Shown one piece after another: positions 10,131-39,815 of a stretch of DNA of 39,818 nt (within the stretch, counting starts at the first letter, position 1; each line of letters starts with the position of its first letter). Source of the stretch: Shigella phage ESh2. The translations under genes were made by a program, and so were the position numbers. The stretch lies in the sequence record ON528716, one strand, 5' to 3'. The notes beneath the pieces were generated by a model that was given only the letters and a program-made list of their open reading frames with translations, made no database searches and was not told the origin of the DNA.

Positions 10131-10586
10131 GTGGCTGGCGCATACGCTGCGCGTGGTATCAGAAAGGTCGGGACATTCCGTTCCGGCCTAGAAGATAAGG
10201 TCTCTAAGCAGCTAGAGAGTAAAGGTATACAGTTTGACTACGAGCAGTGGAAGATTCCATACGTAGTCCCTGCGAGTAATCATACCTATTGTCCAGATTT
10301 TCTACTGCCCAATGGTATCTTTATCGAGACCAAAGGACTATGGGAAAGTGATGACCGCAAGAAGCACCTACTTATTCGCGAGCAGATGCCTGAGCTAGAT
10401 ATACGACTTGTGTTCTCAAGCTCCCGAACAAAGCTCTACAAAGGGTCTCCAACGTCCTATGCAGAATTTTGTGAAAAGCACGGCATCAAGTTTGCTGATA
10501 AGCTGATTCCAGTTGAGTGGCTCAAAGAGCCTAAACGGGAGGTGCCATTCGATAAGCTCAAACAGTCAAAAGGAGCTAAGAAGTGA
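10131..10586 (+). CDS. 3: endonuclease I (Holliday junction resolvase)
   Basis: 151 aa from GTG at 10131 immediately after the 2.5 stop; MAGAYAARGIRKVGTFRSGLEDKVSKQLESKG...PDFLLPNGIFIETKG matches T7 gp3. Confidence 0.9.
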   Translation: MAGAYAARGIRKVGTFRSGLEDKVSKQLESKGIQFDYEQWKIPYVVPASNHTYCPDFLLPNGIFIETKGLWESDDRKKHLLIREQMPELDIRLVFSSSRTKLYKGSPTSYAEFCEKHGIKFADKLIPVEWLKEPKREVPFDKLKQSKGAKK

Positions 10587-11041
10587 TTCATCCAAAACTC
10601 TTGATAGAGCCGACCGATTCCTGTATTGAATGGACAGGCGCGTTCCACAAGAACGGGTACGGAGTAATCTCTTTGAATCGCAAAGTAGCTGCCGAACTAG
10701 GAATACCTAGGGTGCAATTTGTACACAGGGCAAGCTACATGCAGCATAAAGGAACTATAGGTGATGGACTTGTTGTTCGTCACCTGTGTCACAACAGAAA
10801 GTGTTTCAACCCAGCTCACTTGGAAGTCGGCACTCAGTACGATAACTTCGAAGATAGTGTTAAGGTTGGTCGCAACAAACGTAAACTGCTTGATGAGGAC
10901 GTTAAATCAATTAGAGAGTCCACAATGAGTAACCGCAAGTTAGCCAAGCTATACGGTGTTAGCTCTACAACGATCTTCCACATCAAGCACAACAACAAGT
11001 GGAGGAATTTAAATGGCACGAGTACAATTCAAACAGCGTGA
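10583..11041 (+). CDS. HNH homing endonuclease (free-standing), inserted between genes 3 and 3.5
   Basis: 152 aa from GTG 10583 (SD aggag 7 nt upstream); motifs EWTGAFHKNGYG, HRASY, RHLCHNRKCFNPAHLEVGTQYDN; C-terminal region SNRKLAKLYGVSSTTIFHI resembles a helix-turn-helix. Confidence 0.8.
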   Translation: MIHPKLLIEPTDSCIEWTGAFHKNGYGVISLNRKVAAELGIPRVQFVHRASYMQHKGTIGDGLVVRHLCHNRKCFNPAHLEVGTQYDNFEDSVKVGRNKRKLLDEDVKSIRESTMSNRKLAKLYGVSSTTIFHIKHNNKWRNLNGTSTIQTA

Positions 11042-11468
11042 AAGCACCGATGCAATCTTCGTTCATTGCTCAGCAACAAAACCTAATATGAATTGGGGTG
11101 TACGTGAGATTCGCCAGTCTCATAAAGAGCGTGGGTTCCTAGATGTGGGATACCACTTTATCATCAAGCGCGATGGTACTGTAGAGGAAGGCCGAGATGA
11201 GATGGCTGTAGGCTCTCACGCTAAGGACTACAATCACAACTCAATCGGTGTCTGCCTTGTGGGTGGTATCGACGATAAGGGTAAGTTTGACGCTAACTTT
11301 ACGCCAGCCCAAATGCAATCCCTTCGATCACTGCTTGTCACACTGCTGGCTAAATACGAAGGCGCTGTGCTTCGCGCACATCATGATGTTGCACCTAAGG
11401 CTTGCCCATCGTTCGACCTTAAGCGTTGGTGGGAGAAGAATGAACTTGTAACTTCTGACCGTGGATAA
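11013..11468 (+). CDS. 3.5: lysozyme (N-acetylmuramoyl-L-alanine amidase) / RNAP inhibitor
   Basis: 151 aa; MARVQFKQRESTDAIFVHCSATKPN... matches T7 lysozyme; start and SD lie inside the 3' end of the HNH ORF. Confidence 0.95.
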   Translation: MARVQFKQRESTDAIFVHCSATKPNMNWGVREIRQSHKERGFLDVGYHFIIKRDGTVEEGRDEMAVGSHAKDYNHNSIGVCLVGGIDDKGKFDANFTPAQMQSLRSLLVTLLAKYEGAVLRAHHDVAPKACPSFDLKRWWEKNELVTSDRG

Positions 11469-11469
11469 T

Positions 11470-11492
11470 TAATTGAACTCACTAAAGGGAGA
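11470..11492 (+). promoter_or_regulatory. T7 RNAP promoter phi3.8
   Basis: taattgaactcactaaagggaga. Confidence 0.8.
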
Positions 11493-11512
11493 CCACAACG
11501 GTTTCCCTTTGT
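11487..11512 (+). promoter_or_regulatory. 5' leader hairpin / RNase III site R3.8
   Basis: gggagaccacaacggtttccc hairpin; same sequence recurs at the phi10 leader (22511). Confidence 0.6.
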
Positions 11513-19128: not shown

Positions 19129-19449
19129 ATGGGTAAGAAAGTCAAGAAGGTAGTTAAGAAAGTAACTAAGCCCGTTGAGAAAGCCGTAAAGAAAGTTACC
19201 AAGGAAGTGACTCGTCCTATTAAACAGGTTGCTGGTGCGCTGGCGGGTGGTGCTGGTGAAGCACAAGTAGTTGAAGTTCCACAACCAACAGCTGCTGCTA
19301 CTCCTGCTGCACAAATTGTTGACGTACCTGAGAAAGAGGTTTCCACTGATGACGAAGCACAGACCGAAAGCGGACGCAAGAAAGCTCGTTCTGAAGGTAA
19401 GAAGTCCTTGAGTGTAGCCCGTAGCTCCGGTGGGGGTATAAATATATGA
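19129..19449 (+). CDS. 7.3: gene 7.3 tail-associated protein (Lys-rich N-terminus)
   Basis: 106 aa; MGKKVKKVVKKVTKPVEKAVKKVTKE... ending SVARSSGGGINI; matches T7 gp7.3 with a 7-aa PTAAATP insertion. Confidence 0.9.
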   Translation: MGKKVKKVVKKVTKPVEKAVKKVTKEVTRPIKQVAGALAGGAGEAQVVEVPQPTAAATPAAQIVDVPEKEVSTDDEAQTESGRKKARSEGKKSLSVARSSGGGINI

Positions 19450-19847
19450 CAGATTGTATCCTTCATACTGGTTGCACGACTAAAGGAGGGTACGGTCTCG
19501 TTGGTTATAAAGGTAAGACACAGCTGGCTCACAGGGTATCATACATCAAATCAAAGGGTGAGATACCGACTGGTATGGTCATAATGCATACCTGTGACAA
19601 CCCTCTGTGTATCAACCCTGAACATCTTGTAGCTGGAACTCAGCGTGATAACCGTATGGACTGTGTAACTAAAGGTAGAGCGAACGTATCCAGAGGTGAA
19701 GAGCATTATTGTGCCAAGCTCACTGAGGCCATTGTGCGTGAGATTCGTGCATCAAATTTAACCAACACTGAGTTGTCAGAAGTGTATGGCATCCATAGGA
19801 GAACCATTAGTGACGCTCGATGTGGTAAGACATGGAGACATATTTAA
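19446..19847 (+). CDS. 7.7: HNH homing endonuclease at the gene 7.7 position
   Basis: 133 aa; TKGGYGLVGYKGKTQLAHRVSY...HTCDNPLCINPEHLVAGTQRDN HNH motif; C-terminal NTELSEVYGIHRRTISD HTH-like; stop overlaps gene 8 start by 1 nt. Confidence 0.85.
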   Translation: MTDCILHTGCTTKGGYGLVGYKGKTQLAHRVSYIKSKGEIPTGMVIMHTCDNPLCINPEHLVAGTQRDNRMDCVTKGRANVSRGEEHYCAKLTEAIVREIRASNLTNTELSEVYGIHRRTISDARCGKTWRHI

Positions 19848-30173: not shown

Positions 30174-30199
30174 CTAAAGGCTACATAAGGAGGCCCTAA

Positions 30200-30616
30200 A
30201 TGAGTATCGTGGAGCGCATTAGGAATGATTCAATTGTTGATGACAATGGTTGTTGGCTCCCTAAGAGACCAATCAAAGGTTATCGTCACATTAGGATTGA
30301 TGGTGTGCTCCAACGTGCTCACAGGGTGATAGTGGGTGCTGGGAAGGATGACGTTGTATTACACCTGTGTGATGTACCCAGTTGTTGTAACCCTGAGCAT
30401 CTCCGAATAGGCACTCAATCAGACAACATGGTTGACATGCAATCTAAGCATAGACATCCGGGACGTAAATTGAGTGACGAGGATGTAATCTACATACTAA
30501 ACTCTGATGCCTCAGGCTATAGTCTAGCCAAGAAATTCAAAGTAACCAAAGAAGTAATCTATAGAATACGAAAAGGAGAGTACTATGGGCGTTTACGACA
30601 AGTCGAAACCAAGTGA
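30200..30616 (+). CDS. HNH homing endonuclease inserted between genes 15 and 16
   Basis: 138 aa; SD taaggagg; DDNGCWLPKRPIKGYRHI...AHRVIV...HLCDVPSCCNPEHLRIGTQSDN HNH motif; C-terminal SGYSLAKKFKVTKEVIYRIRKG HTH-like; 3' end overlaps gene 16 start by 32 nt. Confidence 0.85.
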   Translation: MSIVERIRNDSIVDDNGCWLPKRPIKGYRHIRIDGVLQRAHRVIVGAGKDDVVLHLCDVPSCCNPEHLRIGTQSDNMVDMQSKHRHPGRKLSDEDVIYILNSDASGYSLAKKFKVTKEVIYRIRKGEYYGRLRQVETK

Positions 30617-33600
30617 GTATGATGGCCTCTTCCAGAAAGCGGCAGATGCTAACGGAGTGTCTTATGACCTTTTACGTAAAGTCGCTTGGACAGAATCACG
30701 ATTTGTACCTACAGCAAAATCTAAGACTGGACCATTAGGCATGATGCAATTAACCAAGGCAACCGCTAAGGCCCTTGGCCTGCGAGTTACCGATGGTCCA
30801 GACGACGACCGACTGAACCCTGAGTTAGCCATCAATGCTGCCGCTAAGCACCTTGCAGGTCTGGTGAGTAAATTCGATGGTGACGAACTTAAAGCTGCCC
30901 TTGCGTACAACCAAGGCGAGGGACGCTTGGGTAATCCACAACTTGAGGCGTACTCCAAGGGAGACTTTGCGTCCATCTCTGAGGAAGGACGTAATTACCT
31001 GCGTAACCTTCTGGATGTCGCTAAGTCACCGATGGCTGGACAATTGGAAACCTTTGGAGGTATCACCCCAAAGGGTAAAGGCATTCCGGCTGATATTGGA
31101 TTGGCTGGAATCGGTCATAGTCAGAAAGTAACACAGGAACTTCCTGAGTCCACAAGTTTTGACGTTAAGGGTATCGAACAGGAGGCTCCGGCGAAACCAT
31201 TCGCCAAGGACTTTTGGGAGACCCACGGAGAAACGCTTGATGAATACAACAGCCGTTCAACCTTCTTCGGATTCAAAAATGCTGCCGAAGCTGAACTCTC
31301 CAACTCAGTAGCTGGGATGGCCTTCCGTGCTGGTCGTCTAGATAATGGTTTTGATGTGTTTAAAGACACCATTACGCCGACTCGCTGGAACTCTCACATT
31401 TGGACTCCAGAAGAGCTAGAGAAGATTCGAACCGAGGTTAAGAACCCTGCGTACATCAACGTGGTAACTGGCGGTTCCCCTGAGAATCTTGACGACCTCA
31501 TTAAGCTGGCTAACGAGAACTTTGAGAAGGACTCACGCGCTGCTGAGGCCGGTCTTGGGGCTAAGCTAAGTGCTGGCGTTATCGGTGCTGGTGTGGACCC
31601 TCTCAGCTATGTACCTATGGTTGGGGTTACGGGTAAGGGCTTTAAGTTAATCAATAAGGCTCTTGTAGTTGGTGCCGAAAGTGCAGCACTTAACGTAGCC
31701 TCCGAAGGTCTCCGTACCTCCGTAGCTGGTGGTGACGCTGACTATGCTGGTGCGGCTTTAGGTGGCTTTGTGTTTGGTGCTGGTATGTCAGCAATCAGTG
31801 ACGCTATTGCTGCTGGACTGAAACGTAGTAAACCAGAAGCCGAGTTCGACAATGAATTCATCGGTCCTATGATGCGAATGGAAGCCCGTGAGACAGCACG
31901 CAACGCCAACTCTGCGGACCTCTCTCGGATGAACACTGAGAACATGAAGTTTGAAGGTGAGTATAACGGAGTACCTTATGAGGACTTACCGACCGAGAAA
32001 GGTGCCGTGGTGTTACACGATGGCTCCATTCTAAGTGCAAGTAACCCAATCAACCCTAAGACTCTCAAAGAGTTCTCAGAGGTTGACCCTGAGAAGGCTG
32101 CGCGAGGAATCAAACTGGCTGGGTTCACCGAGATTGGCTTGAAGACCTTGGGGTCTGACGATGCTGACATCCGTAGAGTGGCTATCGACCTCGTTCGCTC
32201 TCCTACTGGTATGCAGTCTGGTGCCTCCGGTAAGTTCGGTGCAACAGCTTCTGACATCCATGAGAGACTTCATGGTACTGACCAGCGTACTTATAATGAC
32301 TTGTATAAAGCAATGTCTGACGCTATGAAAGACCCTGAGTTCTCTACTGGCGGCGCTAAGATGTCCCGTGAAGAAACTCGCTACACTATCTACCGTAGAG
32401 CGGCACTAGCTATTGAGCGTCCAGAACTCCAGAAGGCACTCACTCCGTCTGAGAGAATCGTTATGGACATCATTAAGCGTCACTTTGACACCAAGCGTGA
32501 ACTCATGGAGAATCCCGCAATCTTCGGTAATACGAAGGCTGTGAGTATCTTCCCTGAGAGTCATCATAAGGGAACCTACGTTCCTCATGTATATGACCGA
32601 CACGCTAAGGCGCTGATGATTCAACGCTATGGTGCCGAAGGTTTACAGGAAGGGATTGCTCGTTCGTGGATGAACAGCTACGTCTCCAGACCTGAGGTCA
32701 AGGCGAGAGTCGATGAGATGCTTAAGGAAGTACACGGGGTGAAGGAAGTAACGCCAGAGATGGTAGAGAAGTACGCTATGGATAAGGCTTACGGTATCTC
32801 CCACTCAGACCAGTTCACCAACAGTTCCATAATCGAAGAGAACATTGAGGGCTTAGTAGGTATTGAGAACAACTCATTCCTTGAGGCACGTAACTTGTTT
32901 GATTCGGACCTATCCATCACTATGCCAGACGGACAGCAATTCTCAGTGAACGACCTAAGGGACTTCGATATGTTCCGCATCATGCCAGCGTATGACCGCC
33001 GTATCAACGGTGACATCGCAATCATGGGGTCTACTGGGAAAACCACTAAGGAACTTAAGGATGAGATTTTGGCTCTTAAGGTGAAAGCTGAGGGGGACGG
33101 GAAGAAGACTGGCGAGGTTCATGCTCTTATGGATACCGTTAAGATTCTTACTGGTCGCGCTCGACGTAATAACGACACTGTGTGGGAAACCTCACTGCGT
33201 TCCATCAATGACCTAGGGTTCTTCGCTAAGAACGCCTACATGGGTGCTCAGAACCTTACCGAGATTGCTGGGATGATTGCCACTGGTAACGTTCGTGCTC
33301 TCGGTCACGGTATACCAATTCTGCGTGATACACTCTACAAGTCTAAACCAGTTTCCGCTAAGGAACTCAAGGAACTCCATGCGTCTCTGTTCGGGAAGGA
33401 GGTGGACCAGTTGATTCGCCCTAAACGTGCTGACATTGTACAGCGCCTAAGGGAAGCGACTGATACCGGACCTGCTGTATCGAACATCGTAGGGACCTTG
33501 AAGTATACCACACAGGAACTGGCTGCTCGCTCTCCGTGGACTAAGCTGCTGAACGGAACCACTAACTACCTTCTGGATGCTGCGCGTCAAGGCATGCTTG

Positions 33601-34613: not shown

Positions 34614-36311
34614 ATGGCTAACGTAATTAAAACCGTTTTGACTTACCAGTTAGATGGCTCCAATCGTGATTTTAATATCCGGTTTGAGTATCTAGCCCGT
34701 AAGTTCGTAGTGGTAACTCTTATTGGGGTAGACCGTAAGGTCCTTACGATTAATACAGACTACCGTTTTGCTACTCGCACCACTATCTCATTGACCAAGG
34801 CTTGGGGACCAGCGGATGGCTACACTACCATCGAGTTACGTCGAGTAACCTCCACGACCGACCGATTGGTTGATTTTACGGACGGCTCAATCCTCCGCGC
34901 GTATGACCTTAACGTCGCTCAGATTCAAACGATGCACGTAGCGGAAGAGGCCCGTGACCTAACTGCCGATACTATCGGTGTCAACAACGATGGTCACTTG
35001 GATGCGCGTGGTCGTCGAATTGTGAACCTAGCGAACGCTGTGGATGACCGTGATGCTGTTCCGTTTGGTCAACTTAAGACCATGAACCAGAACTCATGGC
35101 AAGCTCGTAATGAAGCCTTACAGTTCCGCAATGAGGCTGAGACTTTCCGTAACCAAGCGGAGGGCTTTAAGAATGAGTCCAGCACGAACGCAACGAATAC
35201 CAATCAATGGCGCATTGAGGCTGAGGGGTTCCGTAATGAGGCTGAACAGTTCAAGAACACTGCGACACAACAGGCTACCGCTGCTGGGAACTCTGCTGCT
35301 GCTGCTCACCAATCGGAGATTAACGCCGAGAACTCAGCGACTGACTCTGCTAGCTCTGCTCATTTAGCAGAACAGCAAGCTGACCGTGCTGAGCGCGAAG
35401 CAGACAAGTTGGGTAACTGGAATGCTCTTGCTGGAGCTATTGACCATGTTGACGGTACTCGTGTGTTCTGGAAAGGCGAGCAACATTCTGATGGCAGACT
35501 ATATCTAACCACTAATGGATTCGATATTGGGCAGTATCAACAGTTCTTTGGTGGTGTTACTAACCGTTATTCAGTAATGGAGTGGGGTGATAAGTACGGC
35601 TGGCATTTGTACTCGGAGCGTCAAACCGAGGGTGGTACGACAACATTGAACCTTCGAGGACATATGACAGCAAATGGTAACGTCCGCGCTGCTGGTAACT
35701 CCTATACGAATAACCTCTTTGAGATGGACCGAGAGCAGCATTGGCCCGGTCGTGGTGCGTTTGCGAACCAGTATGCGGACAGGGCTGCACCATTTACCAA
35801 GACTGGTCGTTATCAGGCACCTAACGGGTACTCAGAGTATTATCCTATTGTTAAAGCCTATGTTGAAACACAAGGTTACGGGTATGGTACGGTTGCTACC
35901 TTCGGTATGCTAACCTCTGGAGGTGGTAGGTTTGCTAATGGGTGTGTCCACGTTATTGGGGATAATGGTGTTAATGGTCTCTGGCAGTTCGACCCTAACA
36001 CTGGTGGTTTCCTATCACGCGGAGATGTACATGTTGGAGATGGCGGTGTCGTCTACCAGAACGGTGACATATATGGTACGGTGTGGGGTGGTCGGCCTAT
36101 TTCACAGTGGTTAGGGGACCAGACCGTAAACCACATTGCTATGGGTGGTGTTAACTTTGCTCAGCTATGGAATAGTTACGGTATAGGAGATGGTGGTGGT
36201 AAGGTGATCACAGGAATCACCAACAGTAACGCTGATGCGCTAGTCGATGGATGCCAGTGGCGAGTAATGCAGTATGTCCGCAACAACGGACAGTGTTTCA
36301 ATATTTATTAA
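34614..36311 (+). CDS. 17: tail fibre protein; T7-like N-terminal and shaft region (aa 1 to about 326), divergent C-terminal receptor-binding region (aa about 327-565)
   Basis: 565 aa; MANVIKTVLTYQLDGSNRDFNIRFEYLARKF... matches T7 gp17 through ...GGVTNRYSVMEWGD, then diverges into a Gly-rich sequence unlike the T7 tip domain as recalled. Confidence 0.95.
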   Translation: MANVIKTVLTYQLDGSNRDFNIRFEYLARKFVVVTLIGVDRKVLTINTDYRFATRTTISLTKAWGPADGYTTIELRRVTSTTDRLVDFTDGSILRAYDLNVAQIQTMHVAEEARDLTADTIGVNNDGHLDARGRRIVNLANAVDDRDAVPFGQLKTMNQNSWQARNEALQFRNEAETFRNQAEGFKNESSTNATNTNQWRIEAEGFRNEAEQFKNTATQQATAAGNSAAAAHQSEINAENSATDSASSAHLAEQQADRAEREADKLGNWNALAGAIDHVDGTRVFWKGEQHSDGRLYLTTNGFDIGQYQQFFGGVTNRYSVMEWGDKYGWHLYSERQTEGGTTTLNLRGHMTANGNVRAAGNSYTNNLFEMDREQHWPGRGAFANQYADRAAPFTKTGRYQAPNGYSEYYPIVKAYVETQGYGYGTVATFGMLTSGGGRFANGCVHVIGDNGVNGLWQFDPNTGGFLSRGDVHVGDGGVVYQNGDIYGTVWGGRPISQWLGDQTVNHIAMGGVNFAQLWNSYGIGDGGGKVITGITNSNADALVDGCQWRVMQYVRNNGQCFNIY

Positions 36312-36326
36312 TAGGAGGAGTATGGT

Positions 36327-36932
36327 ATGGGAACTTTACGTCACTATAAGAACTTCGTAAACTATGTACCAGAGCGTACCAAAGATAATGCAGACCTTCT
36401 AGACCACGGCGTTGGCTTCTCAAAGGACGAGAATGGGAATGACTGGTATGAACTGCGTAATACATTCCGTGAGGATACATGGAAACTTGTCTATGCCAAA
36501 GACGGTTCTGTAATTCAGTGTGAACAGGATGTTCAGGAGTTAGCCGTTCAGGGTTCTGCTGGTGTGGTTGAACTTGAGGAAATCCCTGCTGAATACTCTC
36601 GGTATAATATGATGCAGTGGTGGTGGGACGGCGAGAAGCTCACTTGGTATCCAAGATACTTTGAGAACCAGAAGGCTCGTCTAATCTCTATGGCCTCCAA
36701 GAAGATTGAGCAGTATGCTGACTTTATGGCGCTTGGGGAGGAGGGGCTAGAAGGCATCTTAAATGCGTGGCGAGCCTATCGCCTTGCTGTATATAAAGTG
36801 GACCTAAGTGTTCTGCCTTTCTATGACTGGCCTGAGAAGCCTGAGGACTTATTAACAACAACACACAAGGAAAGACGTGTAGTCCACGGAAGGACTCTTA
36901 CAAGGAGGACACGTGCTGTCTTTAGATTTTAA
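36327..36932 (+). CDS. putative tail-fibre assembly chaperone (lambda Tfa-like)
   Basis: 201 aa; SD aggagg 8 nt upstream of ATG; C-terminal signature NAWRAYRLAVYKVDLSVLPFYDWPEKPED resembles the W..YR..L..VD.S..P..WP..P motif of Tfa-family proteins; no gene at this position in T7. Confidence 0.65.
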   Translation: MGTLRHYKNFVNYVPERTKDNADLLDHGVGFSKDENGNDWYELRNTFREDTWKLVYAKDGSVIQCEQDVQELAVQGSAGVVELEEIPAEYSRYNMMQWWWDGEKLTWYPRYFENQKARLISMASKKIEQYADFMALGEEGLEGILNAWRAYRLAVYKVDLSVLPFYDWPEKPEDLLTTTHKERRVVHGRTLTRRTRAVFRF

Positions 36933-39792: not shown

Positions 39793-39815
39793 TAATACGA
39801 CTCACTATAGGGAGA
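39793..39815 (+). promoter_or_regulatory. T7 RNAP promoter phiOR (right-end promoter; its transcript continues across the window boundary into position 1)
   Basis: taatacgactcactatagggaga; window end ...gggagagga joins window start gggacgaaagg... to recreate the T7 phiOR leader. Confidence 0.9.

Follow-up and report, generated by a model that had tools for sequence, protein, structure and literature searches.

The 39,818-bp stretch of Shigella phage ESh2 analysed here (ON528716; "the window" below) represents a complete, circularly permuted T7-like genome of the Studiervirinae genus Teseptimavirus and contains three open reading frames (ORFs) for HNH proteins of 152, 133 and 138 amino acids (aa), situated at 10583-11041, 19446-19847 and 30200-30616. 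With a probability of roughly 80%, each of these ORFs is an intact, free-standing homing-endonuclease gene (HEG) in its own right, belonging to the HNH_3/His-Me-finger family that includes T7 gp2.8 and gp7.7, with nuclease activity and mobility being predicted from sequence. In genome order they are named HEG-1, HEG-2 and HEG-3, and each occupies its own fixed slot directly 5' of a conserved gene, namely gene 3.5 (lysozyme), gene 8 (portal) and gene 16 (internal virion protein). Our comparisons support the notion that they reached the ESh2 genome independently, as old, locus-specific lineages and not as within-genome duplicates.

Family membership and domain architecture

All three proteins match the Pfam family HNH_3 (PF13392) above its gathering cut-off of 24.8 bits (HEG-1 40.7, HEG-2 47.0 and HEG-3 29.1 bits), the zinc-loop model zf-His_Me_endon (PF05551) and, over nearly their full length, the phrog_59 'HNH endonuclease' family (E 1e-19 to 2e-30). 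In pairwise BLASTP comparisons they share 33-39% identity (E 5e-14 to 7e-27) and are colinear through both domains. The motif H-x-C-x4-C-x4-H-x8-N is present in each of them (aa 67-88 in HEG-1, 48-69 in HEG-2 and 55-76 in HEG-3), accompanied by one upstream Cys, and the corresponding residues are invariant among homologues from a large protein database, i.e. C4, H48, C50, C55, H60 and N69 of HEG-2 among 43 and C18, H55, C57, C62, H67 and N76 of HEG-3 among 37 sequences. These results support the homology of the three proteins within one HNH_3/His-Me-finger family and their common nuclease plus helix-turn-helix (HTH) architecture.

The Pfam matches to HTH domains stayed sub-threshold in all three proteins, including those to HTH_psq, HTH_23 and HTH_7 at aa 101-137 of HEG-1, hence HEG-2 and HEG-3 were modelled. 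The HEG-2 model (predicted local distance difference test, pLDDT, 91.2) comprises a beta-beta-alpha nuclease up to about residue 76, a linker of lower confidence and helices at residues 94-102, 107-114 and 118-126. The same layout was obtained in the AlphaFold2 (AF2) model of HEG-3 (pLDDT 89.8; helices 93-101, 106-113 and 117-124), and the HTH of HEG-1 was placed by colinear alignment to these two. Both the beta-beta-alpha-metal fold of the HNH_3/His-Me-finger class and the order of HNH nuclease and C-terminal HTH that is typical of I-HmuI-like modular enzymes are thus found. The N-terminal nuclease is predicted to combine a structural zinc site (Cys...Cys-x4-Cys-x4-His) with a general-base His and a metal-binding Asn, and site recognition would be supplied by the C-terminal HTH domain. 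The initial annotation of the window, made by eye from the sequence, had already proposed a shared HNH plus HTH-like skeleton for the ORFs starting at 10583, 19446 and 30200, which agrees with the HNH_3 scores, the colinear alignment and the models; its motif was essentially right, except that HEG-1 has VHR for AHR and HEG-3 CDV for CDN. Its assignment to homing endonucleases is supported as well, as the three ORFs look like genes of this kind.

Among solved structures, a profile search with the HEG family ranked I-PpoI first and I-HmuI fifth, and a Foldseek search of the PDB with the HEG-3 model returned I-HmuI and I-PpoI again as top matches, with weak E-values (>= 0.04). I-PpoI, a His-Cys box enzyme, is the best sequence match: its general-base His, the ligands of its first zinc site and its metal-binding Asn are spaced as in the HEGs, whose His and Asn fall on I-PpoI H98 and N119 in the HMMER alignment with identical spacing. 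However, the similarity is limited to the active-site/zinc-loop core, and the HMMER match stops at I-PpoI residue 119. In I-PpoI the catalytic Asn is followed by a second Cys/His zinc motif and a dimer-forming C-terminal region; the HEGs have a linker and the HTH at this place and no Cys/His cluster. I-HmuI (PDB 1U3E, Bacillus phage SPO1) is a larger, intron-encoded nicking enzyme of 174 aa, whereas the ESh2 genes are free-standing, all three being intergenic ORFs between intact genes and not located in a group I intron. Moreover, the ESh2 proteins have the Cys/His zinc-loop signature (PF05551) in common with I-PpoI, unlike I-HmuI.

The ratio of nonsynonymous to synonymous substitution rates (dN/dS) of the HEGs relative to close orthologues amounts to 0.04-0.23, hence the genes are maintained and not decaying. 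The family is widespread, with matches in 1,100 of 50,697 phage records and in more than 525 IMG/VR stretches. A profile of the three HEGs found no fourth member in the six-frame translation of ESh2. T7-type genes 2.8, 3.8 and 5.3 are absent from the genome, and none of ten further small ORFs that were scanned against Pfam gave a nuclease match.

Independent origin of the three genes

Intragenomic spread or repeated acquisition had been suggested initially to explain the three copies; the latter fits our data and the former does not. A recent duplication, by which one HEG was copied to two further sites in the ESh2 lineage, might be assumed from the occurrence of three HEGs of one family and one architecture in one 40-kb genome. 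However, the low pairwise protein identity given above is accompanied by a lack of nucleotide similarity among the three genes (46-48% in alignment, BLASTN E > 0.2), and a repeat search in ESh2 detected only T7 promoters and early-region hairpins and no repeat between HEGs. T7 gp2.8 and gp7.7 are each closer to one ESh2 copy than the ESh2 copies are to each other (BLASTP). For a broader comparison, 109 distinct full-length members from ESh2, T7, ESh6, pO111, two Przondoviruses, IMG/VR and metagenome contigs were sampled, their neighbours were classified by ESh2-derived markers, and a distance-based neighbour-joining (NJ) tree was built from about 140 columns with 100 bootstraps. Alignment and phylogeny, the check that had been proposed, speak against spread: depending on the HEG, 21 to 101 of the 109 members, all from other phages, are closer to it than its two own-genome copies, and any pair or trio of ESh2 HEGs is monophyletic in 0/100 bootstraps. 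Each one clusters with the same-slot genes of other phages, as the ESh2-type 7.7 group, the 3.3 group and the 15/16-slot group all reach 100% bootstrap support (62% for the last one when the divergent cp26 copy is included). The 15/16-slot clade with 100% support takes in both Teseptimavirus-like and Przondovirus genomes; for the 7.7 and 2.8 slots as a whole, a grouping by insertion site received only 9% and 0% support. Collectively, the closer foreign members, the missing common clade and the missing DNA similarity practically rule out recent intragenomic spread and support separate acquisition. The GC content of the HEGs (43-44.5%) is lower than that of the genome (48.5%), and the GC content at third codon positions is also below the values of the genome and of core genes.

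The number of copies, regarded as a high load in the initial annotation, rather represents a normal load for such a phage, because T7 has genes 2.8 and 7.7 of the HEG family and in addition the HNH gene 3.8. These T7 genes have been deleted together as 'three homing endonucleases' (bioRxiv 10.1101/2025.09.07.674715). Four HNH ORFs exist in pO111, and several Przondoviruses gave three tblastn places each. The HEG set of ESh2 therefore appears ordinary for T7-like phages, consisting of separately acquired selfish genes of a well-known family with predicted nuclease activity.

Slots and relatives of each gene

Each of the three slots is empty in some close relatives and occupied in others, i.e. 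there is a presence/absence polymorphism at a fixed site. HEG-1 is the orthologue of phiA1122 gene 3.3, annotated as 'protein 3.3' or HNH endonuclease, which occupies the same slot, is positioned identically with respect to genes 3 and 3.5 and shows no substantive difference (93.9% nucleotide (nt) identity, 4 aa differences, dN/dS 0.04). Genes in the same slot of phiA1122, YpP-Y and YpP/YpsP phages, PGX1 and JacobBurckhardt are 93.9-99.8% identical at the nt level, and relatives in Yanou, vB_Yep_15 and Rambo 82.7-91.1%, giving a total of 14 phage records with at least 80% identity. T7 and ESh6 have no gene in this slot, and the gene 3 TAA overlaps the gene 3.5 ATG there.

HEG-2 shares the 7.7 slot with T7, yet its protein is only 47% identical to T7 gp7.7; likewise, HEG-3 shows 46% identity to T7 gp2.8. 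These T7 proteins are putative homing endonucleases of phrog_59 with the same full-length architecture. Compared with T7, ESh2 is devoid of gene 2.8 and instead harbours family members at the junctions 3/3.5 and 15/16. Close DNA relatives of HEG-2 are restricted to ESh6, pO111 and one IMG/VR contig, and the orthologues in ESh6 and pO111, annotated as 'hypothetical protein', can now be labelled correctly. Three states of the 7.7 slot exist in Teseptimavirus: the T7-type allele in about 110 records, mostly T7 isolates and Yersinia pestis phages, the empty slot in N30, CQ615, SYGE1 and 3A_8767, and the ESh2-type allele in ESh6 and pO111. Judged from these sequences, HEG-2 is a rare allele of a polymorphic slot.

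The insertion of about 385 bp that contains HEG-3 is absent from 175/175 Teseptimavirus records spanning the gene 15/16 junction. No relative above about 50% identity was found in IMG/VR, and close relatives came only from Logan and ENA assemblies. A protein encoded on the T7-like Logan contig L076, which has the order gp13-gp14-gp15-HNH-gp16-gp17, shares 99% identity with HEG-3. Relatives with 70-80% identity occur in a large protein collection, and those looked up (P0003, P0006) are also located between gp15 and gp16. The nearest named relatives are HNH genes of Klebsiella Przondovirus phages at the same junction, with 58% identity. In the KP32-like phage vB_Kpl_K48PH164C1, the gene LOCUS47 lies between gp15 and gp16, uses the Shine-Dalgarno (SD) sequence after gene 15 and embeds AAAGGAGA plus ATG for gene 16, like HEG-3; the difference is the other phage genus, as HEG-3 is the member in a Teseptimavirus background. 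The 15/16-junction HEG thus links Teseptimavirus and Przondovirus via one locus-specific mobile lineage. According to the sequence comparisons, HEG-1 is an already annotated gene type, and HEG-3 is new to Teseptimavirus among the deposited genomes while its lineage is known in Przondovirus.

Further nucleases were noticed in the related genomes. The Logan contig L076 encodes a 65-aa Endonuclease_7 (PF02945) ORF between gp13 and gp14 (835-1032), and ESh2 is without this small insertion. An HNH ORF splits the DNA polymerase gene of pO111 in an intron-like manner (L003 23770-26485) and has no counterpart in ESh2. An HNH-only ORF follows terminase gene 19 in ESh6 (L002 4463-4906) and pO111 (L003 729-1172) and is not present in ESh2.

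Junction anatomy and translation signals

In all three slots the HEG start codon either coincides with the original start position of the downstream gene or is no more than about 20 nt away from it. The GTG of HEG-1 overlaps the gene 3 stop (GTGA) and is situated 3 nt from the position of the gene 3.5 ATG in the empty site. The HEG-3 ATG (30200) is found exactly at the position of the gene 16 ATG in HEG-less ESh6, behind the gene 16 SD TAAGGAGG (30186-30193). Of the two 7.7 alleles, the T7-type one begins downstream of the SD used by gene 8 in N30, whose site is empty. This SD has been lost in HEG-2, which also differs in its 5' junction, its ATG overlapping the gene 7.3 stop (ATGA). Hence, HEG-1 and HEG-3 take over the ribosome-binding site of the downstream gene, and HEG-2, which is without it, is translationally coupled to gene 7.3. 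T7 gene 2.8, with the same anatomy, starts at the exact position of the gene 3 GTG in the empty 2.8 slot of ESh2.

The overlap of all three HEGs with the start of the next gene, which had been noted initially, was confirmed, with 29 nt for HEG-1 and gene 3.5 (start at 11013), 32 nt for HEG-3 and gene 16 (start at 30585) and 1 nt for HEG-2 and gene 8 if the latter starts at 19847. This start, with a TAATG overlap, is the most likely one because it corresponds to that in T7, ESh6 and pO111; an alternative in-frame ATG exists at 19832. A replacement SD within the last codons of each HEG (Table 1) probably keeps the essential downstream gene expressed. HEG-2 and the T7-type 7.7 gene end in a nearly identical stretch of about 30 nt, with one base different, which carries GGAG for gene 8. 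Throughout the family, the C-terminal W-R or K-G-E/R residues use GGAG-containing codons that form the downstream SD (10988-11012, 19822-19846 and 30560-30584 in ESh2), and some of the protein conservation at the C-terminus may originate from this dual coding. No T7 promoter match was found immediately upstream of HEG-1, HEG-2 or HEG-3, and scans for sigma-70 promoters and terminators around HEG-1 remained at chance level. For engineering of T7-like phages it is relevant that genes 3.5, 8 and 16 would lose their ribosome-binding sites if the HEG ORFs were deleted naively.

The 5' ends of two downstream genes differ locally from those of relatives. The beginning of gene 16 appears re-coded, as gp16 residues 1-12 read MGVYDKSKPSEY in ESh2 and MDKYDKNVPSDY in ESh6, and the 5' end of gene 3.5 has diverged from HEG-less genomes (Table 1), which makes this tract a candidate for co-conversion or target immunity.

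Table 1. Features related to the three putative homing-endonuclease genes in the ESh2 window
Feature	Position	Strand	Evidence or remark
HEG-1, 152-aa HNH_3 endonuclease (predicted)	10583..11041	+	HNH_3 40.7 bits; between gene 3 (endonuclease I) and gene 3.5 (lysozyme/amidase)
HEG-1 His-Me-finger core HLCHNRKCFNPAHLEVGTQYDN (H67 ... N88)	10781..10846	+	Regular expression; spacing as I-PpoI H98...N119
HEG-1 C-terminal HTH-like region (aa ~103-137)	10889..10993	+	Sub-threshold HTH matches and colinear alignment
GGAGGA, putative SD for gene 3.5 in HEG-1 3' end (codons W-R-N)	11001..11006	+	Junction alignment
Locally diverged gene 3.5 5' end	11013..11130	+	About 70-85% nt identity to HEG-less T7, ESh6 and pO111; most of remaining flank 85-97%
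HEG-2, 133-aa HNH_3 endonuclease (predicted)	19446..19847	+	Gene 7.7 slot, between gene 7.3 and portal gene 8
HEG-2 His-Me-finger core HTCDNPLCINPEHLVAGTQRDN (H48 ... N69)	19587..19652	+	Regular expression; residues invariant in 43 homologues
HEG-2 three-helix HTH domain (aa 94-126)	19725..19823	+	Structure model
GGAG, putative SD for gene 8 in HEG-2 3' end (codons W-R)	19834..19837	+	Junction alignment
HEG-3, 138-aa HNH_3 endonuclease (predicted)	30200..30616	+	Between genes 15 and 16; HNH_3 29.1 bits
HEG-3 His-Me-finger core HLCDVPSCCNPEHLRIGTQSDN (H55 ... N76)	30362..30427	+	Regular expression; residues invariant in 37 homologues
HEG-3 three-helix HTH domain (aa 93-124)	30476..30571	+	AF2 helices
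AAGGAG, putative SD for relocated gene 16 start in HEG-3 K-G-E codons	30573..30578	+	Przondovirus K48PH164C1 arranged alike
Re-coded gene 16 5' end	30585..30644	+	72% identity to ESh6 versus 93-100% further out

Proposed mechanism and alternative explanations

By analogy to T4 MobE and I-HmuI, we propose that during co-infection with an empty-slot relative the HEG enzyme would nick or cleave the DNA close to where the downstream gene begins, and that repair from the HEG-carrying genome would then copy in the HEG with a short flanking tract. The carrier allele would escape this attack owing to the sequence differences found locally in the first part of genes 16 and 3.5. T4 MobE is the product of a promoterless, free-standing HNH gene and nicks the neighbouring gene in its 5' region when the phage has no HEG; the carrier allele is polymorphic there and is protected by this polymorphism (PMC2790892). 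The ESh2 HEGs resemble it in their promoterless layout directly 5' of a conserved gene and in the local polymorphism. However, MobE belongs to another HNH subfamily with a different DNA-binding domain, and its activity was mapped experimentally, whereas that of the ESh2 HEGs is predicted. The nuclease activity, target sites and mobility of HEG-1, HEG-2 and HEG-3 are accordingly to be understood as predictions by analogy.

A number of points weigh against the interpretation as independently acquired homing genes. In the papers that could be searched, no evidence of cleavage or homing by T7 gp2.8 or gp7.7 was found, and the GAPS4 preprint (bioRxiv 10.1101/2025.09.07.674715) was the only relevant source on these genes or phiA1122 gene 3.3. 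In HEG-3, Val replaces the common Asn of 'CDN'. The deep branches of the NJ tree are weak in this simple distance tree of about 140 columns (9% for the 7.7-slot clade and 0% for the 2.8-slot clade), and the empty-site comparison for the 7.7 slot is based on one genome, N30. Furthermore, gene 3 upstream of HEG-1 is also diverged nearly throughout (about 400-480 nt, 70-83%), and the divergence at the HEG-1 site, which is broader than the sharp 60-nt dip in gene 16, could be ordinary mosaicism instead of co-conversion.

Several other roles of the three genes have to be considered beside homing. They could be retained for a benefit to the phage, either in interference competition with co-infecting relatives or by damping DNA-break-sensing defences via DNA binding, which would be compatible with homing. 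The strong purifying selection (dN/dS 0.04-0.23) would fit to such a role, although active homing alone would also hold dN/dS low. Moreover, catalytically dead T7 gp3.8 and a HEG of a BASEL phage reportedly attenuate GAPS4 defence, and on GAPS4 hosts a slower growth was reported for T7 deleted for genes 2.8, 7.7 and 3.8; however, only a mild effect was seen in the phage itself, and neither gp2.8 nor gp7.7 was assayed singly (bioRxiv 10.1101/2025.09.07.674715). Each of the three slots is unoccupied in many relatives that are successful all the same, and we consider this benefit an unlikely though serious explanation for the retention of the genes. It is improbable, in turn, that the genes represent nuclease-dead remnants whose remaining role is DNA binding or regulation through the HTH, or just the translational coupling of the downstream gene. 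The well-conserved HTH domain, the CDV of HEG-3 in place of CDN and the downstream SD sequences in the HEG 3' ends, which could make a deletion costly, are in line with this idea, whereas all three proteins have retained the general-base His, the metal-binding Asn and the three His/Cys zinc ligands plus the upstream Cys, residues that are invariant family-wide, and the whole ORF is under purifying selection.

HNH accessory proteins for DNA packaging such as those of the HK97 gp74 type occur in other phages, and a function as terminase cofactor was therefore taken into account. This idea was rejected as the least plausible one, because no HEG adjoins the terminase genes (gp18/gp19 at about 37.1-39.7 kb), the three slots are empty in close, viable relatives, and the HTH site-recognition domain of the HEGs is typical of homing enzymes. 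Compared with these options, free-standing homing-endonuclease genes remain the preferred explanation for the three ORFs.

The start-codon takeover was found in 4/4 slots looked at. It is tempting to speculate, though rather doubtful in this general form, that it is a rule for this HEG family in Studiervirinae, according to which the element inserts where translation of an essential gene is initiated, uses the SD and start of this gene, and brings along a re-coded 5' end of the gene as well as a replacement SD that is dual-coded in the conserved C-terminal codons of the HEG (K-G-E/R or W-R). The repeated anatomy leads to concrete target-site predictions: if the rule were true, the enzymes would target the SD/start regions of essential genes, the loss of a HEG would be costly to the phage, and HEG-3 would represent a recent cross-genus cassette transfer into a Teseptimavirus.

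Other features of the ESh2 genome

Over a 13-kb core segment the ESh2 genome is about 93% identical at the nt level to phiA1122, YpsP-G, ESh6 and PGX1. The gene order is usual, with genes 1, 2.5, 3, 3.5, 4, 5, 6, 8 to 17 and 19 on the + strand, and consensus T7 promoters are found where expected. The window opens just past a phiOR-like promoter (39793-39815) and includes a gene 19.5 homologue (152-301) and a phiOL-like promoter (939-961), hence the true genome ends including the terminal repeat should be located within its first approximately 900 nt. Directly 3' of gene 3.5, a class-II-type T7 promoter variant (AATTAATTGAACTCACTAAAGGGAGACC) is present at 11467-11508; its T7 counterpart phi3.8 precedes the HNH gene 3.8, whereas in ESh2 this slot is empty and gene 4 comes after the promoter.

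The gene 0.3 slot (1465-1923) encodes a T3-type S-adenosylmethionine lyase (PF23780, E 3e-43) instead of the Ocr of T7, which indicates that the early region is mosaic compared with T7 and ESh6. A repeat of about 43 nt (CAAGGTCGC...GTGGCCTTTATGAT) occurs three times in this region (1399-1441, 1934-1976 and 2229-2271), and these copies are probably RNase III processing hairpins like R0.3, R0.5 and R0.7 of T7. Finally, the tail-fibre gene 17 (34614-36311) is followed directly by an ORF of 201 aa (36327-36932) whose product contains a Caudo_TAP domain for tail-fibre assembly (PF02413, E 2.4e-9). T7 has no such ORF, suggesting that the receptor-binding module was swapped along with a chaperone of its own.

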